Shown: positions 2,849-58,559 of the stretch, piece after piece
Position numbering within the stretch: position 1 is the first letter of the stretch
Layout of the letters: each line of letters begins with the position of its first letter
Assembly: GCA_028286645.1 (NCBI GenBank)
Contig: JAQBRF010000004.1
Span: forward strand, 337,536-401,535
Source: Candidatus Nomurabacteria bacterium
Lineage (GTDB): Bacteria; Patescibacteriota; Minisyncoccia; Phycocordibacterales; UBA5272
DNA: 64,000 nucleotides
Direction: 5' to 3'
Notes under the pieces: generated by a model
Told to the model about the DNA's origin: nothing
The model's database searches: none
Seen by the model: the letters and a program-made list of their open reading frames with translations, nothing else
Position numbers and translations under genes: made by a program

Positions 2849-3025
2849 CAATTTCAAATACAAGATAATTTCATTCTGAGTTCAATCATTTCTTTCATTC
2901 AATCGCGTCGGTATATATCCACAATGACAAATTCCAGAGCCTCGGTCAACTTGACATATAGTAGTATATATAGTAGAGTAAGATGGTGCCAGCGCTTGCT
3001 GGATTTGGATAGAAGGATAACCCTT

Positions 3026-3268
3026 ATGCTGAAGGCTGACATAGCATTGACGGAAGCAAAAATATGGGCTATGGCTATCGCAGTATGGATTGTCATCGTC
3101 CTGGTCGTTCTCGCGGCGATCGCCTGGCCCGGCTTGTACTTACTCCACAAGATCGCAAATGGCCTCGCCCATCTCAATTGGGTAGCCGCTAGCCCCGCCG
3201 GGATGATGCTTCTCGTATTTCTCGTGGGCATCGTGATCGGCCTTCTCATCAATAGACCACGACAGTGA
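3026..3268 (+). CDS. small GC-rich membrane protein (2 TM); start may be 2924
   Basis: Hydrophobic helices AMAIAVWIVIVLVVLAAIAW and MMLLVFLVGIVIGLL. GAAGGA lies upstream of the ATG at 3026. A rho-independent terminator follows immediately. Confidence 0.45.
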   Translation: MLKADIALTEAKIWAMAIAVWIVIVLVVLAAIAWPGLYLLHKIANGLAHLNWVAASPAGMMLLVFLVGIVIGLLINRPRQ

Positions 3269-3287
3269 AATCACCGCCGTTGTGGAA

Positions 3288-3322
3288 AAAGCGGCGTCAC
3301 CGACGCCGCTTTTTCTTTTTTA
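3288..3322 (+). terminator. rho-independent terminator
   Basis: Hairpin GCGGCGT-caccg-ACGCCGC followed by a TTTTTCTTTTTT run. Confidence 0.7.
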
Positions 3323-3449
3323 TATTTATTAAGCGCAGGGATTTGTTTCCAGATACGAGGCGTAGAATATTTTTATGAGGAGACGTACATGAACGTACGT
3401 TAACGATTAAAAATATTCTGCAACAAAGTATATGGAACAAATAACAAGC

Positions 3450-4010
3450 TTAGAGTCGTTCTTCTACATTATGCCAATCGATGTATGACATAAACGCATT
3501 CACATAATCCGCCCTCTTTAGTCCGTAATCAATCATAAAAGCATGCTCAAATACATCCATTACAAGCAGCGGTGTTGCCCCAGCTAAATGGCCCGTATCA
3601 TGCTCATTAATCCATACGTTAAATAATTTTCCCGTTGATTTATCATGAGCGAGTATCACCCACCCTATTCCTCGAATCATTCCCATCCCTACGAATTCCT
3701 TTTGCCAATTTTCAACCGAACCCCAGCATTCTTCAATTTTTTTCTTAAGAGTTCTGTCGCTTAATTGCACTCCTCCTTTTACCATATTTCCAAAATAAAG
3801 TTCATGAAGTCTCATGCCATTCCATTCCCATCCGAATCTTCGATGAAGTTCATTAAATTCAGGAGATCCTGGTTCACAAGTTTTCATTAAATCAGCCAGC
3901 TTATTCGTATTCGTCACATATCCCTGATAAAGAGTGAAGTGATTATTAAGTAGTGTGTCACTAAATCCTGGAATCCCAAGCAGACTTGAAAAGTCTTTTG
4001 CTGTGTACAT
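3450..4010 (-). CDS. Fe/Mn superoxide dismutase
   Basis: C-terminal DVFEHAFMIDYGLKRADYVNAFMSYIDWHNV, close to the SOD signature D-x-W-E-H-[STA]-[FY]2. Length of 186 aa fits. Confidence 0.8.
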   Translation of the reverse strand: MYTAKDFSSLLGIPGFSDTLLNNHFTLYQGYVTNTNKLADLMKTCEPGSPEFNELHRRFGWEWNGMRLHELYFGNMVKGGVQLSDRTLKKKIEECWGSVENWQKEFVGMGMIRGIGWVILAHDKSTGKLFNVWINEHDTGHLAGATPLLVMDVFEHAFMIDYGLKRADYVNAFMSYIDWHNVEERL

Positions 4011-4040
4011 ATTATTTATATTTAATTTATAATCTTCTCC

Positions 4041-5366
4041 CTATGATTCAATTTTCTTTACATATTTCTCTGCAATTTCTTTCATGGCCATAACTAGATC
4101 ATTCATATCTTTTTTTGCAGTTGTTCTTCCCAGAGTTATTCGGAGATTTTCTTTCGCCGCCATCTCACTTTCTCCTAAAGAAATTATAACATAACTCCCA
4201 TCGGTCTCAGAAGATGCACACGCAGATTTATGTGAAATAGCAAACCCTTTTGCGTCCAATCGCAAAATCATCTCCTCGCTCGTTATCCCTGGTATGCGGC
4301 AGTTAATATTATTGGGCAACCGGAGTTCAGAGTGTAGTGCGTAGAGTGTAGCGTGTAGACTTTCTCCCACTTTCCACTTTCCACTTTCTACTAACTGCGG
4401 GATATCGACTCTCGACTTATAGATATCCCATGCTCCATAAAACTTTATAGCGGGAATTTCTTTTTCTGCTTTCTCCTTAAAATAATCTCGCAGCTCCCTT
4501 AATCTTTCGGACTCTGTTTCTCTTAGCCTCACCGCTTCTTCTAAAGCAATAGAGAAAGCATACGCCGAAGATGCATCTTCTGTGCCGCTTCTTAAACCTC
4601 TTTCCTGTCCGCCTCCATGAACTATCGGATCAACTTTTATTCCTTCTCTTTTATAAAGAAGCGCAATGCCTTTAGGCCCATATACCTTGCTAGAATTTAC
4701 TGTAATCATGTGGGCTCGAAGCCTTACGACGTCTAAACTTAAATAGTTTCCTGCTTGGCACGCGTCGGTGTGAAAGTATGGATAAGACGTGAATGTTTTT
4801 CCATTTTCTTTTTTCCATTCGTCCAGTGCTCTTCCGATTTCTTTTATCGGCTGAATAGTTCCGATCTCGTTATTCGCATACATCACACTTACTAAAATAG
4901 TTTCAGGGGTCAGCGCTTCTTTAAAATCATTTAATTTAACTATTCCATCTTCATATGTTTTTAAATAAGTAACATTCACGAGCCGCTTCTTTTCTAAAAA
5001 CCTAATTGCTTCTAATACTGCAGGATGCTCTATTTCAGTAGTAATAATATGCGGAACTTTTCCCGGATTATCTTTTATAAAAGATTCATACGTTCCAAGG
5101 ATCGCCAAATTACAGCTCTCGGTTCCGGAACCTACAAAATATATTTCATATGCATGAGCGTTAAGTAATCGTCCGCATATTGCTCGTGCTTTATCTAAAA
5201 GAAGCCCTGATTGAACTCCTTCCTTATGAATTCCGGATGGATTCCCATAAATTAAAGATGAAACCCGAAGTGCATTAAGCGCTCCGGAAAATATCGGAGT
5301 AGACCCCGCGTGATCTAAATACACTCTGCTCACTTTCTTATTAAAAAAATTTGCGAGAAAATTCAT
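4041..5366 (-). CDS. cysteine desulfurase (IscS/NifS class V aminotransferase) with repeat-encoded loop insertion
   Basis: PLP-lysine motif SSKVYGPKGIALLY. Active-site HKSACASSETDGSYVI. About 35 extra residues (ESGKWKVGESLHATLYALHSELR) are encoded by the tandem DNA repeats 'cactttccactttccactttc' and 'gtgtag...' at 4321-4400. Confidence 0.8.
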   Translation of the reverse strand: MNFLANFFNKKVSRVYLDHAGSTPIFSGALNALRVSSLIYGNPSGIHKEGVQSGLLLDKARAICGRLLNAHAYEIYFVGSGTESCNLAILGTYESFIKDNPGKVPHIITTEIEHPAVLEAIRFLEKKRLVNVTYLKTYEDGIVKLNDFKEALTPETILVSVMYANNEIGTIQPIKEIGRALDEWKKENGKTFTSYPYFHTDACQAGNYLSLDVVRLRAHMITVNSSKVYGPKGIALLYKREGIKVDPIVHGGGQERGLRSGTEDASSAYAFSIALEEAVRLRETESERLRELRDYFKEKAEKEIPAIKFYGAWDIYKSRVDIPQLVESGKWKVGESLHATLYALHSELRLPNNINCRIPGITSEEMILRLDAKGFAISHKSACASSETDGSYVIISLGESEMAAKENLRITLGRTTAKKDMNDLVMAMKEIAEKYVKKIES

Positions 5367-5400: not shown

Positions 5401-5435
5401 AAAATAAAAAACCCAGGCCCGCGAGGACCTGGGTT
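5401..5435 (-). terminator. rho-independent terminator ending the minus-strand small-peptide locus
   Basis: Minus strand reads ACCCAGG...CCTGGGT followed by TTTTTTATTTT. Confidence 0.7.
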
Positions 5436-5617
5436 TGCGAGATAACCTCTCGCGTTGGTGGCTTCCATGGGTGGGAGCCGGGTAGACGCGAAACCGTCTG
5501 TCGCGGCGCGAGGGGCGTTCCCACGCGCAAGCGCACATCGATGACGCGAATATTAGAACAGGCACCTAAGCCCGCAAGGCTCAGCCATTGCGGGCCAGCT
5601 GGCGCCGGCTTGGTTTT

Positions 5618-5791
5618 CTACGCCGCGCTGCCGGGCGAGTCGCCCGGATTGCCACCGGCGATGTGAGCATCGCCCACGGACGCACCGCTTCCGGACGGGG
5701 CGCCTTCGTGGTTCGTCGTCGGATTAGTCGCAGAGATCGTCGTACCAGTGTGGAGCTGCATGGCCATAAGCTGCGGAGGTTCTCGATACAT
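5618..5791 (-). CDS. small Gly/Ser/Thr-rich peptide, paralog 1 (57 aa)
   Basis: Translation MYREPPQLMAMQLHTGTTISATNPTTNHEGAPSGSGASVGDAHIAGGNPGDSPGSAA. GAGGAA lies 6 nt upstream. The last ~30 nt are identical to paralog 2. Confidence 0.5.
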   Translation of the reverse strand: MYREPPQLMAMQLHTGTTISATNPTTNHEGAPSGSGASVGDAHIAGGNPGDSPGSAA

Positions 5792-5904
5792 CGTTGTTCC
5801 TCATAGAGAGTTTATCAAGATGATACAGAAAGAAGCATACCACCTACACCTTCTTTGTCAATGGTGAAAAAATGAATGATTTTTAGACTCAAATATAAAA
5901 AAAG

Positions 5905-5945
5905 ACTACCCCGTACTGCTTGTACTGCTAGGGTAGTCGTTGGGG
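5905..5945 (-). terminator. intrinsic terminator between peptide paralogs 2 and 1
   Basis: Minus strand GACTACC...GGTAGTC followed by TTTTTTTA. An extra GC hairpin GACGGGGCgattGCCCCGTC lies at 5951-5970. Confidence 0.55.
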
Positions 5946-6048
5946 TTACTGACGGGGCGATTGCCCCGTCAGGTATTTCGGCACGCAGCCGGCGCGCAAT
6001 GGCTAAGCCATGGACGCGCGCGGGCTAGCCGGCGCCGAGCTTCGAGCT

Positions 6049-6234
6049 TTACGTCGCGTTGCCGGGCGAGTCGCCCGGATTGCCACTGTCGACGCCGAGC
6101 GCGGTGTGCTGGCCGGAACTCATCTTCGCATTGGTGCCGCCGTCGTGGCGCACGCCGCCGCTCGAGCTCGCCATCGCATGATTTGCAGAGGTATTCGTTG
6201 CACCGAGCTGTTGGCCGATCGATTTCAATTTCAT
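6049..6234 (-). CDS. small Gly/Ser/Thr-rich peptide, paralog 2 (61 aa)
   Basis: Translation MKLKSIGQQLGATNTSANHAMASSSGGVRHDGGTNAKMSSGQHTALGVDSGNPGDSPGNAT. AAAGGAA RBS lies 7 nt upstream. Confidence 0.55.
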   Translation of the reverse strand: MKLKSIGQQLGATNTSANHAMASSSGGVRHDGGTNAKMSSGQHTALGVDSGNPGDSPGNAT

Positions 6235-6294
6235 CGTAGTTCCTTTCGTTGTTTGGAAGGCGTTTTAGAAGACTGCTGTTGCGGTACTTCTACC

Positions 6295-6363
6295 TTACGC
6301 ACGGCTATTGTCCTTCCGTTGCACCGATCGTGATGAGCCGACGAGTTTTGTTTCTTTACTCAT
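6295..6363 (-). CDS. 22-aa micro-ORF (MSKETKLVGSSRSVQRKDNSRA) with GAGGAA RBS
   Basis: ATG with GAGGAA 5 nt upstream, lying between paralogs 3 and 2. May be a leader peptide or chance. Confidence 0.2.
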   Translation of the reverse strand: MSKETKLVGSSRSVQRKDNSRA

Positions 6364-6472
6364 CGGTTCCTCGTCGCGGCGGAAGGCTACTCGTCGCCGA
6401 GAGTCTTCGCCGCGCCGATCGCGTGCCCGCCGTCGCCGACCTTGGCGATGTTGTACTTCGCGAAATGCCTGC

Positions 6473-6646
6473 TCACTTCGATGCCCTGGTCGCGCCGGCG
6501 CGGTGGAATCCAGTGTTGCCCGCGGCGATCGAGGTGTCGACGAAGTCGTGCTTCTTGCTGCTGTTGTGATTGCGGCTTTTAGCGGCCACTTCGTGGCCCA
6601 TGGAACCGCGCGCCTTGTCCGGCTTTTCGTGCAGACTGCTGGTCAT
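6473..6646 (-). CDS. small Gly/Ser/Thr-rich peptide, paralog 3 (57 aa)
   Basis: Translation MTSSLHEKPDKARGSMGHEVAAKSRNHNSSKKHDFVDTSIAAGNTGFHRAGATRASK. GGAGGT RBS lies 5 nt upstream of the ATG. The ORF-track start at 6667 is a GTG. Confidence 0.5.
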   Translation of the reverse strand: MTSSLHEKPDKARGSMGHEVAAKSRNHNSSKKHDFVDTSIAAGNTGFHRAGATRASK

Positions 6647-6730
6647 GTGCACCTCCGTGTTTGCCACCCTTTCGAGCGGCGGGTTGGAAAGCTTTCGATT
6701 TCTACCTTGCTTAGTAGTTCATCTTGAATC

Positions 6731-6782
6731 CTACCACCGCCTCAAAACTTGTCAAGTGGGTAAAATCCGGTGGTAGATCTAC
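6731..6782 (-). promoter_or_regulatory. putative promoter (-35 TTGACA) embedded in operator-like inverted repeats
   Basis: TACCACCG...CGGTGGTA 8-bp inverted repeat flanks a minus-strand TTGACA. The perfect palindrome GGTAGATCTACC overlaps it. Located upstream of peptide paralog 3. Confidence 0.4.
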
Positions 6783-9917: not shown

Positions 9918-10742
9918 ATGAATCAGTCTCTGGTGAAAGAAAGCTCGCAAAGTGAATCTCGTGGACTCTCATCGTCGGAGCGGGATACACTCATTCTCCT
10001 TTTCGATCCCGCTGTGGACGATGAGAGAAAGATCGGACTTTCCTTTTCGCTGGGAGAGGGAGCTGCGAAGCTTCATCTCCGCACGGAGCGAAATGAGAAA
10101 GGCCATCCGCTCATCAAGGTGACTGGGGTGGATTCTGGGCACGATTTCAACCCTTTAATGGTCGGAGTGTACTTATTCTTCGCCCACCTTATCTCAGACC
10201 GTGTGCCGGAAAAGATCATGGGGAGACCTTCTCGTCTCAGGAAATATCTGCGCAATCTGTACACGCTTTACGGCGACACCACGCGGCCGCATCTGTCACC
10301 AGTTGCGACTCCTCCAACGAAACCCGAAACCCACAAAAGGATGCCGCTCCCAGTGAAGGCTCCAACGGCGCCGGTAAAAAAAGCGGCGGTCTTGCAGAAA
10401 GCTTCGCGAATTAACAGAAGCGAGTATGCAGAGTTCGGCGAAAGCTCCAACCTGTCGATGCCTGGCAAGCACCAGCTACTGGCAAGAGGCGAGAATGGGT
10501 ATGCATATGTCCGAAGCGACGGGAGCATCGTCACTCTGGATGGCGCGGATGAAGGGAATACGCTTTACGGGTTAACGATCGGATGCAAGATATCCGTTCG
10601 AGAGCTCTCGAATCGAAACCCCGCTTCTGTGTTCGATGCAGAGCCGCGCCGTGGGCTGGAAATCGGCAAGTTCTACAAGTACCTGTGTCAATTCCATCCG
10701 GAAGTCCCCATTGAGCGCCCAAAGCTTCCGTGGGAAAAATAG
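9918..10742 (+). CDS. GC-rich hypothetical protein (274 aa)
   Basis: AAAGGAG RBS 7 nt upstream. GC-clamped terminator immediately downstream. No recognisable motif. Confidence 0.6.
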   Translation: MNQSLVKESSQSESRGLSSSERDTLILLFDPAVDDERKIGLSFSLGEGAAKLHLRTERNEKGHPLIKVTGVDSGHDFNPLMVGVYLFFAHLISDRVPEKIMGRPSRLRKYLRNLYTLYGDTTRPHLSPVATPPTKPETHKRMPLPVKAPTAPVKKAAVLQKASRINRSEYAEFGESSNLSMPGKHQLLARGENGYAYVRSDGSIVTLDGADEGNTLYGLTIGCKISVRELSNRNPASVFDAEPRRGLEIGKFYKYLCQFHPEVPIERPKLPWEK

Positions 10743-10767
10743 GGTCGAGCTTTTTCACTTTAGCAAT

Positions 10768-10800
10768 CCCCCGGCATCATGTCGGGGCTTTTTCTTTTCT
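10768..10800 (+). terminator. rho-independent terminator
   Basis: CCCCGGCatcatGTCGGGG followed by CTTTTTCTTTTCT. Confidence 0.7.
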
Positions 10801-11029: not shown

Positions 11030-11110
11030 CCTGCCCCGGTGGCGAAATTGGCAACAGAACAAATGCGCTAAGTGCGTCTACCAATTTCGTAAGTACATAG
11101 GGAGGTGAGA
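11030..11110 (+). pseudogene. tRNA-Leu 5' fragment plus fold-back (pseudo-tRNA / att remnant)
   Basis: 'tgccccggtggcgaaattggcaacag' copies tRNA positions 1-26. It is followed by 'agtgcgtctaccaatttcg', the inverse of the D-arm. No complete cloverleaf forms. Confidence 0.5.
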
Positions 11111-12825: not shown

Positions 12826-12854
12826 ATACAGATTATAACCTTCTAATGAAGAAA

Positions 12855-13700: not shown

Positions 13701-13703
13701 TTT

Positions 13704-14135: not shown

Positions 14136-14171
14136 TCTTCGTAACTTTGTGTTTACTTGCTCGGTCTAGTT

Positions 14172-14948: not shown

Positions 14949-14950
14949 AT

Positions 14951-15388: not shown

Positions 15389-15390
15389 AT

Positions 15391-18029: not shown

Positions 18030-18299
18030 ATGGACTCAGACTTAATTGAAAAGACACGACGGGAAACGGCCAGCCAAGTTCTGGCAATTACAACCGTGGT
18101 GTTACAAGCAATGTCAGCCATGACCAATCTCGGAAGCATTACTCCCTACTGGATGATGACAATAGGGTTTGCAACCGCCACAGCAGTTATGTGGATTAGG
18201 CGCAGCGCGAAAGGAGATGGAGGTTATTCTCTCCCCGGCGCAGTGATATGGCCCATCACCACACTTCTCATATTCCTGCATGGCATAGGCAGTCTTTAG
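18030..18299 (+). CDS. small membrane protein (2 TM)
   Basis: 89 aa, two hydrophobic helices. Strong promoter and RBS. Confidence 0.55.
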   Translation: MDSDLIEKTRRETASQVLAITTVVLQAMSAMTNLGSITPYWMMTIGFATATAVMWIRRSAKGDGGYSLPGAVIWPITTLLIFLHGIGSL

Positions 18300-19053: not shown

Positions 19054-19083
19054 AAACGCGGAGGCCGAAGCCTCTCGCGTATT

Positions 19084-19500
19084 TCACACTTTCCTCGCGT
19101 CTTTCTCGATGGGGAACATTTCGAGAATTTTGGAGCGAAGAAAAAAGTACTGAAAAAAGTTCTGAAACCCCATCTCTCGGTAGGGTCTCTCTTCGGAGGG
19201 CGAATAGTTGCCTCCCCAGGCAACCAGCGTTTTATCGCGCATTCGGATATTTATACACTCCGCTTTTGAGACTCCTTGTCCGGCGCTGTTATGAAGAATC
19301 ACTAAATCGAGCTCGTGGTCTTCGGCTGTTATCGTTCTTACCGCCTGCGCAACTTCGGGAGTGTATCGTGCCAAATGGTCTACAACTCCCAAGTACTCCT
19401 CCGCCGTCACATCGAGAAAAATCCCTTTTTCCCGCATCGCTTCCACGAGAGGGGGAAGGTTATTACGACTACCAAGTAAAAGCGTTTTAACTCTGCGCAT
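19084..19500 (-). CDS. hypothetical protein, possible Rossmann-like (DprA/LOG-like) fold
   Basis: LLLGSRNNLPPLV and DLVILHNSAGQG loosely resemble SLOG-superfamily motifs. Moderately GC-rich. Confidence 0.35.
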   Translation of the reverse strand: MRRVKTLLLGSRNNLPPLVEAMREKGIFLDVTAEEYLGVVDHLARYTPEVAQAVRTITAEDHELDLVILHNSAGQGVSKAECINIRMRDKTLVAWGGNYSPSEERPYREMGFQNFFQYFFLRSKILEMFPIEKDARKV

Positions 19501-20218: not shown

Positions 20219-20692
20219 TCAAGCCGCATCGCCGCATTGGGCTTTGGCAGCTTCCACTGTTCGCTGAAATTCTTCGCGACTCATGTCATCGCCAACAAGC
20301 CCTGGAGCCCACTCGAACGGCTTAGGGTCAGCCGCTAGGACCGCGTTGAATTCTTCCCTGGTCAGTATCTGGTTGGGAATACTTTCTGACCGTTCGAGTT
20401 CGTTTACCGCTGGATACGCGATGCTGAGCTCGTGGTTCAGAAAAAAATGCATCGAGCTCACCCGTGCCTTTCTCAGCGTCATGAGTTTCCATACATCGGT
20501 GATAAGCTCGAGATCCGGAGTAAGCACTACGTTTCTCGTCCCTTTGAATAAGGCGGGGAAAGTCCCCATGAGCCCATGCTCGAGCTCCAGGAAGTAGACC
20601 ACCGTAGGCACGAACCCTGCCACTTTGCCGTCCTGCAATTCTTTCAGTGTTGCTGGAACTTTACTTCTGAGATCATCGTTTCGTATGCCCAT
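20219..20692 (-). CDS. GC-rich hypothetical protein
   Basis: GGAGGAAAA RBS before the ATG (MGIRNDDL). The ORF-track start at 20767 lies upstream of the RBS. Confidence 0.5.
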   Translation of the reverse strand: MGIRNDDLRSKVPATLKELQDGKVAGFVPTVVYFLELEHGLMGTFPALFKGTRNVVLTPDLELITDVWKLMTLRKARVSSMHFFLNHELSIAYPAVNELERSESIPNQILTREEFNAVLAADPKPFEWAPGLVGDDMSREEFQRTVEAAKAQCGDAA

Positions 20693-23113: not shown

Positions 23114-23557
23114 ATGAACAAACTGTTCGCAAGTATCGTAATTACATTCTGCCTGGCAGCCTGCCAGAGCATCCCACAAACCACCACCCCGGCACAAAAA
23201 ACCGTGCCGACCATGATCACCACAACCAAAGTCCTGGACCTTCTGGACAAGGACGAGGTGGTGATAGTCGACGTACGGCCGAAGCAAGACCGGAAAACCT
23301 TTCCGTCCGCCTACGGGATTCACTATCTTCAATTCGGTCCGACTCAATGGACCGGAAAGATATCCGGAAGGGATGAGGAAAACTTCCTTCGCGCAATCTA
23401 CCCCATCTACGCGGAGGCGGAGGAGGCGGGGAAAATGATCGTCTTGATGTGCGACGAAGGTGTGCGAGCGCGTGTCGCTGCACAGCTGCTTCACAATCAG
23501 GACATGGACGTGTTCTACGCGTCCGATGCCAACATGATTACGCTCATGTACCGCTAA
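23114..23557 (+). CDS. rhodanese-domain lipoprotein (GC-rich)
   Basis: Signal peptide with lipobox LAAC. Rhodanese active-site loop LMCDEGVRARVAA (CxxGxR). Confidence 0.6.
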   Translation: MNKLFASIVITFCLAACQSIPQTTTPAQKTVPTMITTTKVLDLLDKDEVVIVDVRPKQDRKTFPSAYGIHYLQFGPTQWTGKISGRDEENFLRAIYPIYAEAEEAGKMIVLMCDEGVRARVAAQLLHNQDMDVFYASDANMITLMYR

Positions 23558-23704: not shown

Positions 23705-24781
23705 ATGTCTTTTCGCAAACCCACTAAAGCTCAGATGTCCCTACTTAGCGCTACAGTAGGATTCTCTTCGTATCTCATTCCTGCGTACCTAAGTTTCAGT
23801 GGTCCATATAAATGGTGGATGATGTTAGCAGTCTTTTTCAGCTGCTGCGTCTACTATTTCATAGACCTACCATATCCCATAGAAGTGCGCTATTTCAACA
23901 AACCGGTGGGAAATTATTACGATGAGGGTTTTGTTCTGTTCTTTACAATTCCTTTTATTGACTTCCTCTTACGGTTATCCTATCCATATGGAATATGGAT
24001 AGATAGACCAAAAGGAAAAGAGAGGCCAGAAGATATCTACAGAAGGGAGGCTCGAGTTCGAATTAACAAGGACGATTCGAACGTGCGTATCCTCGCACCA
24101 ATCAGAAACTTTACAAAGAGGGATGCGCTCGTAATTAGCATCATAAGGTATTTTTGGGAGCTTTTGTTCACCGGGCCGGAAATATATAAATTCAAAAGGG
24201 TTGGCCGACTCCTACTTTTACTTAGCTTCCTCGGCGGCTTTGGAGCCACTAAGTTCGCCTCAGAACCAGTAGCCGCTCCTCTCCCGCTTCCGAATCCTAC
24301 GAATAATTCTTCTTCCCCGGAGGTGCCTCCGCTACTAGATGTCCAATTTTCCACCACTTCGTCGGAAGTGGTGGAACTAAACGCGCCACTCGCAAGCGAG
24401 CCACCAAACGCCTTGACGGAAACTCAACCGGTAACTCAAGGTATACCCGCAATTCCACAGTCCGCTGCGCCCTCTCTCGGGCCTCAACTCGCGCAAATCG
24501 ATTACTCCCCAAGTGACGAGATACGTGTGTGGAATGAAAATGAATGCGCTCGCATTCCTCCAGACACAGTGTTCGCGTTCAAAATGAACACATGGCCTAA
24601 GCGAGCTGCCAACATGCGTCAAGCATTGAGCTACGCCGACATTCGCAATGGTCAAGGCGGAGAGCCCTCCTACAATACCATCCCCTGGCAAGATGTCGGG
24701 TCATACTGGAACGCCATCGACCCAAATTATCCTCTGCGCTGGGAATCCTACCCTGGTCGCGTGGGGTATGTCTGCTTTTAG
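23705..24781 (+). CDS. hypothetical polytopic membrane protein with Pro/Ser-rich linker and C-terminal domain
   Basis: GGGAGA RBS before MSFRKPTKAQ. Several TM helices. Moderately GC-rich. Confidence 0.5.
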   Translation: MSFRKPTKAQMSLLSATVGFSSYLIPAYLSFSGPYKWWMMLAVFFSCCVYYFIDLPYPIEVRYFNKPVGNYYDEGFVLFFTIPFIDFLLRLSYPYGIWIDRPKGKERPEDIYRREARVRINKDDSNVRILAPIRNFTKRDALVISIIRYFWELLFTGPEIYKFKRVGRLLLLLSFLGGFGATKFASEPVAAPLPLPNPTNNSSSPEVPPLLDVQFSTTSSEVVELNAPLASEPPNALTETQPVTQGIPAIPQSAAPSLGPQLAQIDYSPSDEIRVWNENECARIPPDTVFAFKMNTWPKRAANMRQALSYADIRNGQGGEPSYNTIPWQDVGSYWNAIDPNYPLRWESYPGRVGYVCF

Positions 24782-33845: not shown

Positions 33846-34979
33846 ATGACCACCAACATTCCTGCTCCCTCGGGCGCTTTCGTGGGATCGATCGATCGTT
33901 CCGGTTCTCGCGCGGGCGAAGAAAAGGCCATGGTCCTGGCATGGAACGCATTCATGGCGAACATGAAAAAAGACCCGCTGGGCCAAAACATGCGCGGCCG
34001 CATATCGATGTGGGACAATATGGGCACCGACATCCTCCGTCAAGGAGTTTTCTCGGAGATCAAACCGCTCACAAACGGCGAGATCGAAGCCCGGGCGCTC
34101 ACTCCGCTTTACGACAACGTAATGTTCGCGATTCAGATCCTCGACGAGATGGAAGGCGCTCGAAAAGCGCTCGTCATCGACACCGACGGTCTGGAGAACT
34201 ACTCTCAAAAGTGGAAGGATGTCGCTCCAGTCCGGGCGGAAATCGAAAAACGTCGCGAGCAAGGCTGGCTCGTCATCTACCTCGCGAAGAATATAGACGC
34301 GTGGAAGGTGGCGGAGGAGCTCGGCATCCCGAAAGAAAACGCGATGAACTACCGCAATACCGGCGCCGCGGCGCCGCATAGCGGAGGCTTACTGAGCCGT
34401 TTTCGTAACCATGTGGCAGAACACCCCATGGGCTACGCGCTCGGCGCGACTGCTGCGCTCGTCGGCGCTTACATGCTGCTCCGTCCGGGGCAATCGCATG
34501 GCGCACTCGGCTTCACTGATTCGGATCGCAATAACGCGATGGGCGTAGACGGCGTCAGCCAAACCTGGCAGAACGCAGTGGCAGACGATGCGAGCGGGTT
34601 CAGAGAGCCGATCAACCACTTCATGGACCTGCCAACGAATCTACAGGAAGCGTACGTCGGGCTCCCTGAAGATTTCGACCCGCTCCTCGGCTCGATGAAC
34701 GAAGACGGAACTCAGCCGGGTCTCCTCGATCCGAATGAAGATGTCCTCGATGCAACGGATGCCGAAAGCTTGGCTAACGGTGAATATGCCGAGGCTGGTC
34801 AAGGTGAATCCAACGCGACCGAGGACACACCGAGACAAGGAAACGTGTCGGGAAATGATCGCGAAGAACAAGGGGCCGACGCGGACCCTGACCCACTTCC
34901 CGAGGAATCGAACGACTCGGTGAGTATTGACGCAGACTACGGCGGCGGTGGTGGTGGTGGAGACATCGGGGGCGACTGA
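33846..34979 (+). CDS. GC-rich hypothetical protein with acidic tail ending in poly-Gly
   Basis: AGGAGG RBS 9 nt before the ATG (MTTNIPAPSG). C-terminal DADYGGGGGGGDIGGD. Confidence 0.55.
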   Translation: MTTNIPAPSGAFVGSIDRSGSRAGEEKAMVLAWNAFMANMKKDPLGQNMRGRISMWDNMGTDILRQGVFSEIKPLTNGEIEARALTPLYDNVMFAIQILDEMEGARKALVIDTDGLENYSQKWKDVAPVRAEIEKRREQGWLVIYLAKNIDAWKVAEELGIPKENAMNYRNTGAAAPHSGGLLSRFRNHVAEHPMGYALGATAALVGAYMLLRPGQSHGALGFTDSDRNNAMGVDGVSQTWQNAVADDASGFREPINHFMDLPTNLQEAYVGLPEDFDPLLGSMNEDGTQPGLLDPNEDVLDATDAESLANGEYAEAGQGESNATEDTPRQGNVSGNDREEQGADADPDPLPEESNDSVSIDADYGGGGGGGDIGGD

Positions 34980-35063
34980 GAATCGCCTCGACGTCACGAC
35001 GTAAAGCAAGAAAGTCAACCGTCCACAAGGCGTAAGCTGAGTGGGCGGTTTTTTTATTAATAA

Positions 35064-36610: not shown

Positions 36611-36967
36611 ATGCCACTCGCGTTAACAGAAGAACCGCAAACTTCACAGCCGTACATGGATCCCAGCAACCTGGAAAAGTTGAGCTGGAACCGGGTGCTG
36701 TACACAGCCGTCAAGCAAAGGAAAGCTCACGGACTCGTGGATACCGGAAGCATCATCAACGGAGTCCGGACGGACTTCCATAAGAAATGCACCCCTGAAG
36801 TCGCAGAATATATCCTGCGGGGGTGGGAACAGCACGGATTCCTCCACAACGCTCGCGGGCATTGGTGGAGACTCACGGAGGCAGCGGAACAAAAGGCGGG
36901 AGCTTGGGCACAAAATCCCGCACATATGCGTCGGACCACAAGCCCTGAAGCGTTGATGCGCGCGTAA
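36611..36967 (+). CDS. GC-rich hypothetical protein
   Basis: GGAGA RBS before MPLALTEEPQ. A terminator follows. Confidence 0.45.
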   Translation: MPLALTEEPQTSQPYMDPSNLEKLSWNRVLYTAVKQRKAHGLVDTGSIINGVRTDFHKKCTPEVAEYILRGWEQHGFLHNARGHWWRLTEAAEQKAGAWAQNPAHMRRTTSPEALMRA

Positions 36968-38303: not shown

Positions 38304-39008
38304 TTACAGACCGGATTTCAACTTGATATCCGGTGAACCATCGAGAATTGCGGAAGTGTGAATCATTTCCTGGTCGCGGATCAACCTGGCAAGACGGTTA
38401 ACAGTCTTCCATCCGAGCTCTTTTTGTACGTCCCGCTCTCTGATCTCTGCGGCCACCATCCGTCGGCAATTCTTTCTTTCCGGATAGAACCACAACCGGG
38501 CGAAACGAGCGTTTGCTAGCAGGGTTGTTGATTTTGTGGCCTTTTCATCCTTCAGAACTTCCCAGCCGAGGGTGATAGCCACTTGGCGATGCCCTCCGAA
38601 CGGATTCAAAAGGTGCCGTCGCAAATACACCGCCATCAGCACCTCCTTATCATCCGGAGTAAGAAGCCTACGAGCCGGCGCTTGCATGGCAACCTGCGAA
38701 AGTCGGCTCATTTCCTTGAAGCGTTCGATGGCCTTCGGTACATAGCTCAGTTGCCGCTTCGCAATAAGCTTGATCGAATGATTCATCGCCGCGTAAAGGG
38801 TGCTGATATACGTCATCTGCGCCCGAGCCCATTGCTCACGAAGCAGTCCTTCTCTTTCTTGGGTCCGTGCGGGCCGCAGACTGAATGCAACGTACTGCGT
38901 GTTTGCGTATTCGTAGAGTCTACGATGTTGAAGTACTACACCTTTCGACCCGAAGTACAAACCTTGCCAGTGCGGTGCATCATCTTGATGTAACGGATCT
39001 TGCGGCAT
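38304..39008 (-). CDS. GC-rich hypothetical protein
   Basis: AGGGGGAAAC precedes the ATG at 39008 (MPQDPLHQ). No recognised motif. Confidence 0.45.
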   Translation of the reverse strand: MPQDPLHQDDAPHWQGLYFGSKGVVLQHRRLYEYANTQYVAFSLRPARTQEREGLLREQWARAQMTYISTLYAAMNHSIKLIAKRQLSYVPKAIERFKEMSRLSQVAMQAPARRLLTPDDKEVLMAVYLRRHLLNPFGGHRQVAITLGWEVLKDEKATKSTTLLANARFARLWFYPERKNCRRMVAAEIRERDVQKELGWKTVNRLARLIRDQEMIHTSAILDGSPDIKLKSGL

Positions 39009-41206: not shown

Positions 41207-41596
41207 TCAGTACTTCGCGAGGCCCTTTTCGGAGAGAATACCCTCAGCCTCGTCATGGGCTTCTACGAGCAATTTCTCAAGGCACCTGGACGCCCGCATT
41301 TCGTCTGAGGAATAATTCTCCTCATTGGGGGGGTATATCGTATCTACGAAAGAATGAATACGCTGCCCGAAATTCTTAAAAGCGAGATAACTGCCTCCTT
41401 TTTCCACCTGATCGACAAGGGCTTTTACTAAAGCCGGTTTGCTTATCGAAGAAAGTACGAGGGACAGGTCGCCCATGTCCAACATTGGCGCTTTGCTTTG
41501 TAGAACGAAAATTGCCTTTCCATTGTTCATTTGCAGTCCCCTCTTAATATGAATATAGCTCATTTCAACTCTACAGGAATCTTGATTGGACTGCAA
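41207..41596 (-). CDS. hypothetical protein (moderately GC-rich)
   Basis: ORF with a minus-strand terminator (CCCTGCttatGCGGGG plus a T-run) at 41174-41198. Confidence 0.4.
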   Translation of the reverse strand: MQSNQDSCRVEMSYIHIKRGLQMNNGKAIFVLQSKAPMLDMGDLSLVLSSISKPALVKALVDQVEKGGSYLAFKNFGQRIHSFVDTIYPPNEENYSSDEMRASRCLEKLLVEAHDEAEGILSEKGLAKY

Positions 41597-42733: not shown

Positions 42734-43018
42734 GTGAACCCTTTGTACATTGTTATGCCGTCCCTTAGCGTAAACACGGCAGAATTCGTTCAGAATGTGG
42801 AGTTGACGAAAAGCTTTCTTTATCAACTCTTCGTGCTGCCACTTGTCGCCGTGGCGATCTACTTCGCAATTTACTATGTGTTTTGCGCCCCAGGCGTAGA
42901 ACAAGCGGAGAATCGCTGTCACTATAAGAAGATTCGGAAAGTCTTCACAGGATTTTTAGTTCTCTTCATCGTGATTAATGTGGTTTTCCGGCTCGCTCTG
43001 CGCTTCCTGTTGAGCTAA
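42734..43018 (+). CDS. small membrane protein (GTG start)
   Basis: AGGAGA 5 nt upstream of the GTG. Two TM helices. A strong terminator follows. Confidence 0.45.
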   Translation: MNPLYIVMPSLSVNTAEFVQNVELTKSFLYQLFVLPLVAVAIYFAIYYVFCAPGVEQAENRCHYKKIRKVFTGFLVLFIVINVVFRLALRFLLS

Positions 43019-43812: not shown

Positions 43813-44283
43813 CTACCCAGAGAGCTCCCCGTAGTACTCGAACTCACGGTGGAGCTTTTCCGAAAGCGGGAACCTGTTAGTCTGCCCTCGGTCTGGCACC
43901 CGATTTATCTTCGGGTCCCATGCTTGGTATTGCATACGAGAGCCGCTTATCAGGTGTTCTAATGAAAGAACCACCACGTACGGGCTTGAACTTCCTTCCT
44001 TTCTTCTCTTGAGGATCGTGCTCCCGGGCTTGATGACGAACTTCTTCCCGAGGAAACGATAATCCCGCTGGAAGTGAGGCAGAGGATGACGAGCGAGTGA
44101 GCTTGTAGGCTTCACCTCCTGCTTGACCACATCCCATTCGCGAGTGGTGACCTCCCCTCCATACAATTGCTCCGCGTCCGGAGGAAATACCTCCATGACG
44201 AGCACAATACTCTGCGCGCCTGCCACCACTTTCCGATCCAACCACAGATCCTCTACTGCGGGGTTCTGCTTTACCTTTTTCAT
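43813..44283 (-). CDS. GC-rich hypothetical protein, tandem paralog 1
   Basis: Shares WDPKINRVPDRGQTNRFPLSEKLHREFE with paralog 2 (WDLKNNCPQPRGQTNGHPIDERFHKKFK). Confidence 0.5.
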   Translation of the reverse strand: MKKVKQNPAVEDLWLDRKVVAGAQSIVLVMEVFPPDAEQLYGGEVTTREWDVVKQEVKPTSSLARHPLPHFQRDYRFLGKKFVIKPGSTILKRRKEGSSSPYVVVLSLEHLISGSRMQYQAWDPKINRVPDRGQTNRFPLSEKLHREFEYYGELSG

Positions 44284-44329
44284 TGCGAGTACTCCATTGA
44301 ACGTATCATTATTACCCTATCATGCTTTT

Positions 44330-44358
44330 CTTAAAGAAAAAAGCCGCGCGAGCGCGGC
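44330..44358 (-). terminator. rho-independent terminator
   Basis: Minus strand GCCGCGC...GCGCGGC followed by TTTTTTCTTT. Confidence 0.6.
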
Positions 44359-44381
44359 CACTTATACGTTGGAGCTTCCAT

Positions 44382-44885
44382 TTAACGCTTGAGAGGTGGC
44401 TCCACCACCTTGAACTTCTTATGGAAGCGTTCGTCGATGGGGTGCCCGTTGGTTTGACCTCTGGGCTGAGGACAGTTGTTCTTCAGATCCCACACTCGGT
44501 ACTGAAATACCCACACATCTTCAGAACGTTGCGGTTTCCAAACTTTCATCACCTTGATGTAGCGAGCGTCTTCGTGTTCACGCTTTTCCCGTTCCAGAAT
44601 GGTCACTCCTGGCTCGAGATCCGGAACATAGAACCCGACGCGACGGCCATAGTTATCGGGGAAATTCCGCGCCTCGAGATAGGAGGTAGTTCCCACAGGA
44701 GTTCCTTTCTCGATGTCGAACGATCGTACCTTCGCCACAGTGAGAGCGCGAGCCATGAGTGGGTGGTGGCCTTTCTGCACATTGAGGACCACGACATGGG
44801 GCCATGATCTCCTTGCCCCCTTTTGCCTCTCAAACACCCCACCCTCTTCAACCTTCTGTGACCCTTCTTTCTTCTCGATGAACAT
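44382..44885 (-). CDS. GC-rich hypothetical protein, tandem paralog 2
   Basis: See paralog 1. Confidence 0.5.
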   Translation of the reverse strand: MFIEKKEGSQKVEEGGVFERQKGARRSWPHVVVLNVQKGHHPLMARALTVAKVRSFDIEKGTPVGTTSYLEARNFPDNYGRRVGFYVPDLEPGVTILEREKREHEDARYIKVMKVWKPQRSEDVWVFQYRVWDLKNNCPQPRGQTNGHPIDERFHKKFKVVEPPLKR

Positions 44886-48322: not shown

Positions 48323-48868
48323 TTAAGCGATCGGGTCAAAATCGTTGGAGATCCCGAACTCTGCAAAGAGGGTGAAGACTCGTTCGCAAACGATGGCTTT
48401 CGCGAGATCTCGTACGAAGGTGTCGATGGCCCGACCCCTCGGATACAGACCCCCGAATTCCTTTATAACTACGCTGTGTGCCTGACAGAAATCATCAAGC
48501 TTGTCCATCAGAAAACCTGCTTCACCGCTACGTTTGATGATACCCATGGTGTGAGTGAAGGAGAAGTTGTTTTGGGTTTTTTCCTTCACCACATTCACGA
48601 TTACGGCGGCGAGATCAGTTTTTGCGTTGATCAAAGCCATCTGAGTTTCCTCATCTTCTGTGATCCTTTTCAGGACCTCCTTGCCCACTTCCAGAAAAAT
48701 AGGGTCGCCTTGGCGACTTCCTGTGGACTTGTAAAAGCGAGAAAGCAACTCAACAGAACTATGTGCGGATTGCATATAGTCTCCTTGACTATCAAGGTCC
48801 ACCTCACGACAATTCGTAAGCATGGAAGATTCGAGGTTCGTCCTCGTCCGAACCATAACAAACAACAA
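48323..48868 (-). CDS. hypothetical protein (GC-moderate) between rpoC and dnaG
   Basis: ORF with a minus-strand terminator (CCGCAccagtTGCGG plus a T-run) at about 48268-48300. Confidence 0.4.
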   Translation of the reverse strand: MLFVMVRTRTNLESSMLTNCREVDLDSQGDYMQSAHSSVELLSRFYKSTGSRQGDPIFLEVGKEVLKRITEDEETQMALINAKTDLAAVIVNVVKEKTQNNFSFTHTMGIIKRSGEAGFLMDKLDDFCQAHSVVIKEFGGLYPRGRAIDTFVRDLAKAIVCERVFTLFAEFGISNDFDPIA

Positions 48869-56273: not shown

Positions 56274-56750
56274 TTAAGGGCGTGATGTGATGAATCGGAA
56301 CTTGCATCCGTAGATCTCGAGCGTGTCTTCGTCGGGTGTGCTCCCTCGTATGTACTTGAACTCAGGAGCGGTCGGCATTTTACGCCGCTCTTCAACGTCG
56401 AGCGGTGACGGAAGAAGCACTTGATCAGTGTAGCGTGGCGGGGGGAGCCAACGTTTGCCCACCAGATCATAGTAGAGCTTCAACCTTAACACTTCATTGC
56501 TTCGTTGCCGAATAGGGCGGGTAAGAAACTCGGCCTCAATCTGAAGAGATTGATTGACGTCACCCCCGTGCGGCACAGAGAAGGCAAGTAAGGTAAGAGC
56601 CCCCGAGACAAAGCACGCGAGTGCAGGCAATACGTAATCATTCCGCGCTGCGATGTCTGATTCGAGAAAACCTGCTGCTATTAAAATGGCAAATCCTGCT
56701 CCAACCAACATGGCGCCGGCCGCCTGATGAGGCTTCATATAAGAATTCAT
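56274..56750 (-). CDS. GC-rich hypothetical membrane-anchored protein
   Basis: AAAGGATGG RBS before the ATG at 56750 (MNSYMKPHQ). One TM helix. Confidence 0.45.
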   Translation of the reverse strand: MNSYMKPHQAAGAMLVGAGFAILIAAGFLESDIAARNDYVLPALACFVSGALTLLAFSVPHGGDVNQSLQIEAEFLTRPIRQRSNEVLRLKLYYDLVGKRWLPPPRYTDQVLLPSPLDVEERRKMPTAPEFKYIRGSTPDEDTLEIYGCKFRFITSRP

Positions 56751-56969
56751 AACCATCCTTTAGCTCTCTCGACATGGAAGAGCAGAATTGTAAAATGAGC
56801 ATTCATCCCGGGATTAAGACCGGAAGATAACCAGTGTCGAGCCTAGTGCGGTTACTATAGCACATTTTGCACCAAGTGTCAATACTAAATAACCCTTCAT
56901 TTATAAAGGCTTTTCTTTTTTCATTATTTGTGGTGTAATACAGGAAACTTTTCACAAATGAGGTGACTC

Positions 56970-57278
56970 ATGTCCCGCATTATCGTGTGTGTTCTTCTGT
57001 TCTGTCTTCAGCATTCCGTAATAGCGGCCTCCGATCCACTGGAAAACATCCAGGAAAAGATAAGGGGGGCGGCCGACGAATTAAACAAATATGGAGTATG
57101 TGTCGAGCAAAACATCGATACATACTCAGTAAAGGTTTGCAGCGGAAGAATACAATCCCCCTGCAACCATTTCCTGCGAGCTCGTGTGCATTCTCACCGT
57201 GAAGACCACTATCGATGTCCGGCGGGGCGAGATCTGGGAAGCATGCCAATTAAGAATCGCATCGTACTACCTAAGTAA
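56970..57278 (+). CDS. small secreted Cys-rich protein
   Basis: GAGGTGA RBS. Signal peptide MSRIIVCVLLFCLQHSVIAAS. Six Cys in the mature part. Confidence 0.4.
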   Translation: MSRIIVCVLLFCLQHSVIAASDPLENIQEKIRGAADELNKYGVCVEQNIDTYSVKVCSGRIQSPCNHFLRARVHSHREDHYRCPAGRDLGSMPIKNRIVLPK

Positions 57279-57424
57279 AAATCTATTGCTTAGGTTTACT
57301 TACGATATACCCTGTTTAAATAACGACCATGAGGAGGTGGAGAAGTACAAGGGATTGGCGAAAGACATTTTCCGAAAGGCGATCCTCTCGATCGCGAAGT
57401 AACGCCCGAAAGGGCTTTTTTTTA

Positions 57425-58018
57425 TTATATAAACTTCTTTATTACTTTAAAGTCTTCAAAAAGCTGAGGCTTCATCCCGCCGTTATAAAGCCCAACAGCT
57501 GGATGATATAGTGGCAAAATATCTACTTTTCCATAAGATAACTTTCCTTTATACAATTTCCCGTGCATTTTTCCTATTGTAGTTAATTCGGTTGCGATAC
57601 CGGTTTTTGAAAAAATATAATACATGCTTAAGCGCCCTAGAAGCACAATTACTTTCGGCTTAATGATTTCTAGCTGACGGTCTAAGAAGGGCGCATAGAG
57701 CGCAATTTCTTCTGGCGATGGATCGCGATTATCGTGCGGTCGGTCTTTCACTAAATTTGTAATGTAAACTTTTTGCCGATCAAGCCCAATAGAAGCTAAC
57801 ATTTCATCCAGCAATTTACCAGAGCGTCCGCAAAATGGCTTTCCGGTGAGCGCTTCAGTTTTCCCCGGAGCTTCTCCGATACAAACAATATTCGCCTTTT
57901 CTGTTCCTTCTCCTATTACAGGAAAATAGTTATTAGTAATCCGATATTCATATAAGGGAGATTCTTTCAAATTTAAAATCTCTTTATTTATTTTCTGCAT
58001 ACCATCCTTCTTTATCAT
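57425..58018 (-). CDS. uracil-DNA glycosylase superfamily protein (family 4-like)
   Basis: IVCIGEAPGKTE motif A, FCGRSGKLL, and LPLYHPA motif B. Confidence 0.7.
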   Translation of the reverse strand: MIKKDGMQKINKEILNLKESPLYEYRITNNYFPVIGEGTEKANIVCIGEAPGKTEALTGKPFCGRSGKLLDEMLASIGLDRQKVYITNLVKDRPHDNRDPSPEEIALYAPFLDRQLEIIKPKVIVLLGRLSMYYIFSKTGIATELTTIGKMHGKLYKGKLSYGKVDILPLYHPAVGLYNGGMKPQLFEDFKVIKKFI

Positions 58019-58053
58019 AATGATAGTTTACAGTTTTCAGTTATCAGTTTCCA

Positions 58054-58083
58054 GTAAAAAAGCGCACCCTCCCCGGTGCGCCT
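58054..58083 (-). terminator. rho-independent terminator
   Basis: Minus strand GCGCACCggggaGGGTGCGC followed by TTTTTT. Confidence 0.7.
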
Positions 58084-58103
58084 GATGCGAAAATGAACGC
58101 CGC

Positions 58104-58559
58104 TTACTTCTTCGCGTGCTTTTCTTTGTTTTTATATGCCATTCTCGCTTCGTTCCATTCATGGTCAGACTTCAAGATAATCCTCACATAGTGCCCGGAG
58201 AATCTCCATTCGGTTTCCTTTTCCTGACCATTGATCAGGACCACATTTTCCTCCGGGGTGTAGCGGACAGTTGCGCGAACCCCTTTATTGCTTATCGCGA
58301 AGCATTCGTCATCGGGCGCTTCCCCGGGGGATTGGCAGTTTTCCTTGAACTTCGCCAGATCATACGGGCTGATCCTTAGGTCCGGCTGTACAGGATGTTT
58401 ATTTGCCAGGGCAATGACCCGAGCACTTTCCTTTTTATAAAACTCTTCCCGCTCGCCATTGCGTTGAATGGCAGAAACTGCCCATATGGCCACCGACACA
58501 AAAGCTACCGCCCCCGCGCCCCATGAGAAGACGCGTAATGCTCTCCTGACCTTATTCAT
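58104..58559 (-). CDS. GC-rich hypothetical membrane-anchored protein
   Basis: 151 aa, with an N-terminal TM helix and a Lys-rich tail. Confidence 0.45.
   Translation of the reverse strand: MNKVRRALRVFSWGAGAVAFVSVAIWAVSAIQRNGEREEFYKKESARVIALANKHPVQPDLRISPYDLAKFKENCQSPGEAPDDECFAISNKGVRATVRYTPEENVVLINGQEKETEWRFSGHYVRIILKSDHEWNEARMAYKNKEKHAKK

Follow-up and report, generated by a model that had tools for sequence, protein, structure and literature searches.

The 64,000-nucleotide stretch analysed here (the window; positions 337,536 to 401,535 of contig JAQBRF010000004.1) raises the question of why open reading frames (ORFs) of high GC content, mostly belonging to no known family, stand one by one among AT-rich conserved genes, and where they come from. 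The window is chromosomal DNA of a metagenome-assembled genome (MAG) of Patescibacteria (class Paceibacteria, 'Nomurabacteria'), a soil bacterium with a tiny, AT-rich genome, and rpoB, rpoC, dnaG, rpoD, obg, gatB, topA, infB, parB and relA/spoT were confirmed in it by Pfam. One GC-rich product has the NCBI annotation JWN37_798 of Candidatus Nomurabacteria bacterium, on a 514-kb contig. A first-pass annotation made from the sequence had interpreted the GC-rich ORFs as acquisitions from a high-GC donor such as an actinobacterial host. In our reading, to which we give a probability of roughly 0.55, they form a fast-evolving, lineage-specific class of accessory genes that has its own expression architecture and is native to the lineage.

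The curated gene lists contain about 22 ORFs in the GC-rich class (GC-class; 10,392 bp; 23 ORFs in the terminator scan) and 43 AT-rich genes (AT-class, the core genes; 39,960 bp). GC content at the first, second and third codon positions (GC1/GC2/GC3) is 0.57/0.42/0.60 in the former and 0.45/0.34/0.31 in the latter, and on these lists the GC3 ranges (0.49-0.78 vs 0.21-0.39) do not overlap at all, every GC-class ORF exceeding the core GC3 by 0.18 to 0.36. The GC content of the whole window is 0.405, and its distribution over 200-nt segments has a heavy right tail that reaches 0.70. The per-gene GC3 count proposed in the first-pass annotation thus bears out its description of GC-rich ORFs of unknown function among AT-rich genes, that is, a gene-by-gene compositional mosaic. 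Three of the 17 intervals it listed (5618-6646, 43813-44885 and 56970-57402) are not single ORFs; the GC-class ORFs 18030-18299, 42734-43018 and the borderline 30770-31081 were absent from its list. The relative shifts at the three codon positions match what genomes of about 55% and about 37% GC would show (Muto-Osawa relations), which indicates settled coding sequence rather than random GC-rich DNA. Transmembrane (TM) segments, a signal peptide or a lipobox are predicted in about 9 of the 22 products, so that the original wording 'many' membrane or secreted proteins is fair, and 'most' would overstate it.

The GC step is restricted to the ORF and its terminator: upstream the GC content is 0.35-0.38, within the ORF it is about 0.54, and by 50 nt past the stop codon it has fallen back to 0.39. 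Strong terminators, defined as a hairpin plus T-run with a free energy (dG) of -10 or lower at most 90 nt past the stop codon, follow 18 of 23 GC-class ORFs vs 4 of 43 AT-class genes (Fisher p = 2e-8), in agreement with the initial remark that GC hairpins with T-runs usually follow the GC-rich ORFs. The former count becomes 19 when the own terminator of the 56970-57402 unit is included, and two of the four AT-class terminators are bidirectional hairpins of convergent GC-rich ORFs. Promoters matching at least 10 of 12 consensus positions are predicted for 10 of 22 GC-class ORFs, with leaders of 35-97 nt, vs 3 of 43 AT-class genes (p = 5e-4), and a strong Shine-Dalgarno site at the correct spacing precedes 15 of 22 GC-class ORFs vs 4 of 43 core genes (p = 2e-6).

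Many core genes have an extended -10 box (TGnTATAAT-like) that ends 6-7 nt before the ATG, as upstream of infB, dnaG, rpoD and ORF 40582. Among 452 anchor genes, the conserved genes of the related loci described below, a TATAAT-like hexamer ends at this distance in 60, the background at other distances being about 2-4 per position. This sharp peak argues for leaderless transcription of the anchors and implies that leaderless mRNAs are probably widespread among the core genes of this Paceibacteria lineage. The contrast in Shine-Dalgarno sites bears on the reported loss of the 16S anti-Shine-Dalgarno motif in about half of Parcubacteria (PMC9297842), to which the missing sites of the core genes may be related; the 16S of this MAG lies outside the window.

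Recognisable domains were found in only two GC-class products, a rhodanese domain (23114-23557) and a VWA fold (33846-34979), of which Pfam recovered the former only. Pfam and NCBIfam, the latter run on 10 ORFs, gave no family for 20 of the 22 ORFs; PADLOC, also run on 10 ORFs, and NCBIfam gave no match, and PHROGs matched the VWA protein only (phrog_7371). Deep database searches covered three ORFs, and the rest were searched through family libraries, 90% identity clusters and tblastn against phages and plasmids. ORF 9918-10742 matched only itself among 5.8 billion cluster representatives; for ORF 48323-48775, an exhaustive HMMER search of 1.84 billion representatives gave the ORF itself and one marginal match (E = 8e-6), and no homologue was present among the 138 ORFs of the rpoC-dnaG gap in 64 related loci. 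All eight ORFs looked up in the 90% identity clusters (about 15 billion proteins) are singletons, and 16 ORFs searched as a 2,651-amino-acid (aa) concatenate had no tblastn match in 50,697 phage genomes and 72,556 plasmids.

Several simple candidates were rejected. The GC-rich regions are not copies of one mobile element, since in all-against-all blastn and tblastx comparisons only two paralogue pairs were similar; one of these, 43813-44283 and 44382-44885, retains 36% identity over 70 aa (E = 5e-10), and both copies are still GC-rich. Nor are they structured RNAs: Rfam gave only tRNAs and one LOOT RNA, and the coding signatures are clear. An alternative genetic code was discarded because table 11 leaves the long core ORFs unbroken.

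For comparison, related loci were collected by means of DnaG, 62 from GTDB species representatives and 30 from metagenomes, with 43-84% identity; the nearest relative located in protein and metagenome searches has about 84% DnaG identity. Their labels are Paceibacterota, Nomurabacteria or Parcubacteria, with many mislabelled as Saccharibacteria, and they come from groundwater, lake and soil. Between 36.5 and 58.2 kb of the window, homologues in related loci were found for 11 of 11 AT-class genes vs one of nine GC-class ORFs (p = 7e-5), the exception being a conserved family in the gap between gatB and miaA. This comparison with sister genomes, which the first-pass annotation had suggested, shows the GC-class to be lineage-specific, with eight of nine ORFs lacking a homologue in 62-92 related loci.

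The pattern as such is present throughout the relatives. In the approximately 88 related loci covered by the pattern statistics, the GC3 of anchors deviates from the local median with a standard deviation of 0.03, and 29% of variable ORFs lie above the 99th percentile of the anchors. The gaps with GC-elevated ORFs match those of the window (rpoC-dnaG, rpoD-obg, gatB-miaA, downstream of grx and upstream of rpoB), which agrees with the early observation that such ORFs are wedged into conserved synteny, 48323-48775 between rpoC and dnaG and 56274-56756 upstream of rpoB. Different, unrelated families, many of them singletons, fill the same gap in different lineages; at the glutaredoxin-adjacent position, for example, relatives have GC-elevated ORFs of 76-148 aa that are not homologous to 36611..36967 but share its orientation. 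Strong terminators follow 61% of GC-elevated variable ORFs, 36% of other variable ORFs and 30% of anchors, and Shine-Dalgarno sites at the best candidate start precede 53%, 22% and 8%, respectively (p = 1.6e-26).

When ORFs were picked by the Shine-Dalgarno site and terminator alone, with no GC criterion, their GC3 was 0.13 above background and rose with the host background (slope 1.30 ± 0.21, p = 2e-8); within GC-elevated families the slope is 0.81 (p = 0.003). A fixed high-GC donor pool predicts a slope near zero, so that the dependence of class GC3 on recipient GC3 argues against one common high-GC donor. The most AT-rich related genomes have few GC-elevated ORFs. The window has 4.2 GC-elevated ORFs per 10 kb, whereas related loci have 1.0 on average and at most 4.0, and it is the extreme of a continuum across them.

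ORF 38304-39008 represents the family in the gatB-miaA gap. By jackhmmer, it matches gap ORFs in 12-14 related loci at about 27% identity with conserved motifs. All members are GC-elevated, and a strong Shine-Dalgarno site is retained in at least 10 of 12. Across the ORFs of this gap, GC3 equals 1.14 x host background + 0.11 (Spearman 0.67, p = 4e-4). The first-pass annotation held that orthologues of the same composition across the whole lineage would speak against its import hypothesis, and such orthologues exist for this one family. In a pair of strains about 1.4% divergent (loci L016 and L086), the synonymous divergence (pS) of the gap gene is 0.047, compared with 0.045-0.057 in rpoC, dnaG and rpoD, which indicates that the gene was inherited with its flanks and was not hypermutated. 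Its ratio of nonsynonymous to synonymous divergence (pN/pS) is 0.54 vs 0.01-0.02 in the flanks, and the gap protein evolves about 25 times faster than the neighbouring proteins. Pairwise identities of the gap protein and of gatB/miaA are uncorrelated, the relatives being almost equidistant (rho = 0.25 even between gatB and miaA), and a single-sequence structure model of the gap protein reached a confidence score (pLDDT) of 43. In the same strain pair, a block of about 2.5 kb with obg and two neighbours (L016 7172-9626) is essentially identical at a synonymous divergence of about 5% elsewhere, which suggests recent homologous recombination within these populations; the dnaG-rpoD interval of L086 holds a 478-aa AT-rich ORF that has no aligned counterpart in L016.

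The product of ORF 33846-34979 has 11 full-length homologues (38-49% identity), and the sequence DRSGS, the DxSxS motif of the metal-ion-dependent adhesion site (MIDAS), is invariant in their alignment. The AlphaFold2 (AF2) model has a pLDDT of 70 overall and 80-90 over residues 10-170, and its best Foldseek matches are VWA and integrin I domains (probability 1.0); at the level of the predicted structure, a Rossmann-like VWA fold with a MIDAS motif is confirmed. The homologues sit in non-syntenic contexts, with two of the six examined (the window and five others) syntenic with each other, and the family has a higher GC content than its neighbours in each of the six, at host GC contents of 0.39 to 0.54. 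When IMG/VR was scanned with the family, the matches were limited to the generic VWA domain (23-34% identity).

The GC excess is best read as a property of the class that is maintained within the lineage, not as a recent import from a high-GC host still awaiting amelioration, because the gap family, its Shine-Dalgarno site and its GC elevation persist across deep divergence and because GC scales with the host. Each GC-rich ORF appears to be an autonomous, insulated unit of near-consensus promoter, 35-100-nt leader, Shine-Dalgarno site, ORF and terminator, as predicted from sequence motifs. The units occupy gaps between conserved operons, and the same gaps in relatives hold equivalent, mostly non-homologous units. 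The terminators would shield essential neighbours from read-through, and the leader, Shine-Dalgarno site, GC-rich body and 3' hairpin could together give strongly translated, RNase-resistant, long-lived mRNAs. The encoded proteins may be rapidly changing surface, secreted or interaction proteins. More tentatively, and as a possibility that we rate as rather unlikely, the genome may have two expression regimes, of which the accessory one is maintained by selection and owes its GC content to the mode of expression and evolution, not to origin.

The GC excess might be kept in place by selection on mRNA or by GC-biased gene conversion at loci that recombine often. In core genes of bacteria, a link between recombination and GC3 has been reported (Lassalle et al. 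2015, PMC4450053). It resembles the present case in that GC is raised mostly at third positions, in particular genes and independently of codon optimality, and accelerated protein evolution could be a side effect. It differs in that the offset here is 0.2-0.35 in GC3, ends at ORF boundaries and is tied to the leader, Shine-Dalgarno site and terminator. Long conversion tracts are argued against by the fact that GC does not spread into the flanking core genes.

A number of observations weigh against a native origin maintained in place. No GC gradient into flanking core genes was found across the class boundaries, the published gene conversion effect was observed in core genes, and GC3 offsets of +0.2 to +0.35 in bacteria have not been demonstrated for any in-place force known to us. 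The dinucleotide distance (delta*) of the GC-class is 92 vs 35 ± 11 in controls, and TGA ends 6 of 22 GC-class ORFs (TAA 11, TGA 6, TAG 5) vs 2 of 43 core genes (TAA 24, TAG 17, TGA 2, which is unusual for an AT-rich genome); these several independent differences from the core, in dinucleotides, TGA, Shine-Dalgarno sites and terminators, also fit an outside source. Vertical descent is evidenced in one family, that of the gatB-miaA gap, and most GC-class ORFs of the window have no homologue even in the same gap of related genomes. The density of about four times the average looks like a burst of gene gain, and site-specific integration has taken place in this genome, as tRNA 3'-end repeats close to two cassettes show. 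It should also be noted that ORFs in related loci were called by a simple longest-ORF heuristic.

Alternatively, the cassettes may flow repeatedly into permissive gaps between operons from an unsampled, co-evolving, Patescibacteria-specific mobile pool that is somewhat GC-richer and uses Shine-Dalgarno sites (phages, plasmid-like elements or GC-richer relatives, with entry by transformation, recombination or integration), the cassettes being GC-rich since they are young or continually replaced. We regard this as a serious, though less probable, alternative. It would account for the distinct dinucleotide signature and stop-codon use, the unrelated families and many singletons in the same gap across lineages, the non-syntenic VWA homologues with their phrog_7371 match, the fourfold density, and the graded frequency of Shine-Dalgarno sites and terminators from GC-elevated variable over other variable to conserved genes. 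The tRNA-linked 3' fragments and serine-recombinase island of the window also fit it, as does a survey in which most gene transfers into Patescibacteria came from other Patescibacteria (PMC12455944). However, the pool would need to co-vary with every host (slope about 1.3), the gatB-miaA family is conserved in its gap with a synonymous divergence equal to that of its flanks, and no phage, plasmid or IMG/VR relative was found beyond the generic VWA domain. There is likewise no recombinase or shared attachment-like (att-like) sequence beside the cassettes, and the sole clear mobile island in the window is AT-rich.

Recent, unameliorated transfer from a high-GC donor, for instance the actinobacterial host of an episymbiont, as originally proposed, would explain why the GC1/GC2/GC3 values fit genes native to a genome of about 55% GC, why the ORFs are missing from the same gaps of related genomes, and why their Shine-Dalgarno sites and terminators are foreign to the style of the core. 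This proposal has become very improbable and is close to refuted. No homologue was found in any sampled GC-rich organism, and 20 of 22 ORFs lack a Pfam/NCBIfam family, which ordinary bacterial genes usually have. The same class occurs lineage-wide in relatives from groundwater, lake and soil, its GC3 follows the GC of the recipient, and a family of positional orthologues has remained GC-elevated across saturated divergence. The VWA homologues are only 38-49% identical and again GC-elevated relative to neighbours in five contexts, and the regions upstream of the ORFs are AT-rich and host-like.

An artefact (chimeric assembly of the metagenome, or non-coding GC-rich DNA in which long ORFs arise by chance) might be suspected because the source is a MAG and because GC-rich DNA bears long spurious ORFs on both strands, overlapping antisense ORFs being present here, yet its probability is negligible: more than 20 gene-sized switches fall exactly at promoter/terminator boundaries, a separate assembly (Logan; Sequence Read Archive (SRA) run SRR13312974) reproduces the arrangement at 33.8-39.9 kb, dozens of MAGs from unrelated studies have the same pattern, a 377-codon open frame at 58% GC has by our estimate from base composition a chance probability of about 1e-6, and codon-position GC, Shine-Dalgarno spacing, motifs in two families and the VWA fold indicate coding. 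As a purely speculative alternative, retro-insertion of mRNAs as cDNA would explain the limitation of GC to the stretch from ribosome-binding site to terminator.

The units share features with several known systems. Phage morons, described by Hendrix, Juhala and colleagues about 2000, are reportedly extra genes inserted between conserved phage genes. Like the cassettes, they consist of one ORF that brings its own promoter and intrinsic terminator, lies between two genes adjacent in relatives and differs from these neighbours in base composition; unlike morons, the cassettes are chromosomal, among rpoB, rpoC, dnaG, rpoD, gatB, obg, topA, infB and parB, have no phage homologues, and show a composition offset that tracks the host and has persisted through long divergence. 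In genes that diverge rapidly, a drift towards AT is the expectation. Bacterial ORFans, as far as they are summarised in PMC12315717 (Daubin & Ochman 2004), are likewise short genes of unknown function that evolve fast, are restricted to a lineage and cluster at variable sites between core genes; according to the same summary, classical ORFans are AT-rich relative to the genome or no different from it (Vakirlis & Kupczok 2024). The class in the window is, in contrast, 25-35 GC3 points richer and has other transcription and translation signals. Chromosomal gene gain between core genes is also captured by the concept of hotspots. As in hotspots and tRNA-linked islands, the same gaps hold different genes in each lineage, and the window contains tRNA repeats and a serine-recombinase island; unlike them, the units consist of single genes with no flanking integrase or att repeat, and the clear island (11.2-17.9 kb) is AT-rich. 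Integron cassettes, which form a tandem array beside an integron integrase and each end in a related attC site, differ from the units, which are scattered over 55 kb with no shared flanking sequence and with hairpins that differ in sequence.

The origin of bacterial ORFans is debated between phage import, rapid divergence and de novo birth (PMC12315717), with low GC as the usual hallmark; here this polarity is reversed, the lineage-specific genes being far GC-richer than the core. In a limited literature check we came across no account of Patescibacteria with GC-rich ORFans that carry Shine-Dalgarno sites. If the pattern holds genome-wide, it would offer a natural system in which to separate mutation bias, biased gene conversion and selection on base composition, and composition-based detectors of islands and horizontal gene transfer will misread such genomes. 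The products, about 40% of them predicted to be membrane or secreted proteins, would then probably be highly expressed, fast-evolving candidates for interaction with hosts or phages in an uncultured group of episymbionts. The units are listed in the table.

Table. GC-rich units of the window, with predicted promoters (consensus matches of 12, or hexamers and spacer) and terminators (energies in kcal).
Unit (strand)	ORF and product	Composition, context and clusters	Promoter	Terminator
3026..3316 (+)	ORF 3026-3268, alternative start 2924; 80 aa; two TM helices	GC3 0.59	TTGACA-17-TAGAGT, 46 nt before ATG	3284-3316, -23.8
5409..6755 (-), islet	Three small ORFs: 5618-5791 (57 aa) and 6049-6234 (61 aa), paralogues (35% identity, E = 3e-5); ~6473-6648 (~58 aa), possibly frameshifted	73-nt direct repeat, 84% identical	5861-5834; 6755-6728	5436-5409
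9918..10787 (+)	ORF 9918-10742; 274 aa; soluble; ORFan; JWN37_772	GC3 0.59; singleton cluster	TTGACA-17-CAGAAT	10769-10787
18030..18299 (+)	Small membrane ORF; 89 aa	GC 0.50	TTGACT-17-TACAAT, 35 nt upstream	-14.6
19061..19500 (-)	ORF 19084-19500; 138 aa	GC3 0.53; singleton cluster		Hairpin, -16.9
20219..20692 (-)	157 aa; longest ORF to 20767	GC3 0.57; downstream of tRNA-Leu(UAA) and its repeated 3'-end fragments		-13.7
23114..23557 (+)	Lipoprotein; 147 aa; rhodanese-like domain (Pfam PF00581, E = 1.4e-5); lipobox LAAC		12/12, TTGACA-17-TATAAT	-19.3
23705..24781 (+)	358 aa; membrane segment, Pro-rich linker, C-terminal domain	GC3 0.49; cluster members this MAG and Logan (SRA-run) copy only		-12.2
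28440..29066 (+)	208 aa; longest ORF from 28353; no family match in Pfam, PHROGs, PADLOC and NCBIfam scans	GC3 0.53; between topA and relA/spoT		No strong one in hairpin scan
33846..35050 (+)	ORF 33846-34979; 377 aa; VWA domain, MIDAS motif DRSGS, TM helix, acidic tail	GC 0.58, GC3 0.67		Bidirectional, common with convergent peptidoglycan-binding gene
36611..36967 (+)	118 aa	GC3 0.59; convergent with glutaredoxin gene; singleton cluster		-18.2
38304..39008 (-)	234 aa; all-alpha	gatB-miaA gap	11/12	-23.2
41207..41533 (-)	~108 aa	GC3 0.52; downstream of obg; no homologue found in related loci		-10.0
42734..43018 (+)	Small membrane ORF; 94 aa; two TM helices	GC3 0.59	11/12, TTGACT-16-TATAAT	-17.3
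43813..44885 (-)	Tandem paralogues 43813-44283 (156 aa) and 44382-44885 (167 aa)	GC3 0.64 and 0.61; singleton clusters		-17.3 and -12.0
48323..48775 (-)	150 aa; ORFan; 48323-48868 in the first-pass annotation	Between rpoC and dnaG		-13.3
56274..56756 (-)	160 aa; two TM helices	GC3 0.54; upstream of rpoB	11/12	-13.9
56970..57425 (+)	Signal peptide; frameshift splits unit into 56970-57278 and 57184-57402			GCCCGAAAGGGC then eight T
58104..58559 (-)	151 aa; N-terminal TM anchor	GC3 0.58; singleton cluster		-15.4

The frameshifted unit 56970..57425 is either a decaying gene or the result of a sequence error. On the minus strand, a frame that stays open for at least 891 codons (1-2675) continues beyond the left end of the window; this large gene was absent from the ORF list.

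The AT-rich island at about 11200-17900 (GC 0.30-0.36) starts beside tRNA-Leu(UAG) and has the classical polarity. It contains a large serine recombinase (11200-12825, minus strand), a cyclodipeptide synthase (14172-14948), a GNAT acetyltransferase (14951-15388), ORFs of unknown function and a LOOT RNA (13528-13642, plus strand; Rfam RF03000, 65 bits vs a gathering score of 46). To our knowledge, the LOOT motif has been described only from metagenomes without an assigned organism. A copy of the 5' end of tRNA-Leu(UAG) lies at 11033-11052.

Two other tRNA-Leu genes are followed by extra copies of their own 3' end, from the T-loop to the 3' terminus (20839-21321 and 33254-33699). Downstream of tRNA-Leu(UAA) there is a copy at 21048-21067 and a degenerate one near 20855-20888; downstream of tRNA-Leu(CAA), exact 16-mers occur at 33417-33432 and 33254-33269. 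The spacing of the copies is about 165-200 nt, and every repeat unit closes with a hairpin terminator. Two types of unit with shared internal motifs are present at both loci, in reversed order, and Rfam at permissive thresholds gave no family for them. They look like integration (att) scars or a small family of tRNA-linked elements. Adjacency to tRNAs as such was rejected as meaningful, four of five tRNAs having a GC-class neighbour, compared with a chance expectation of about 55% that we estimated from the GC-class share. Two paralogous DUF2238 membrane-protein genes (19571-20167 and 21442-22071) flank tRNA-Leu(UAA), its repeats and ORF 20219-20692, and have in common an 82-nt stretch with 78% DNA identity.

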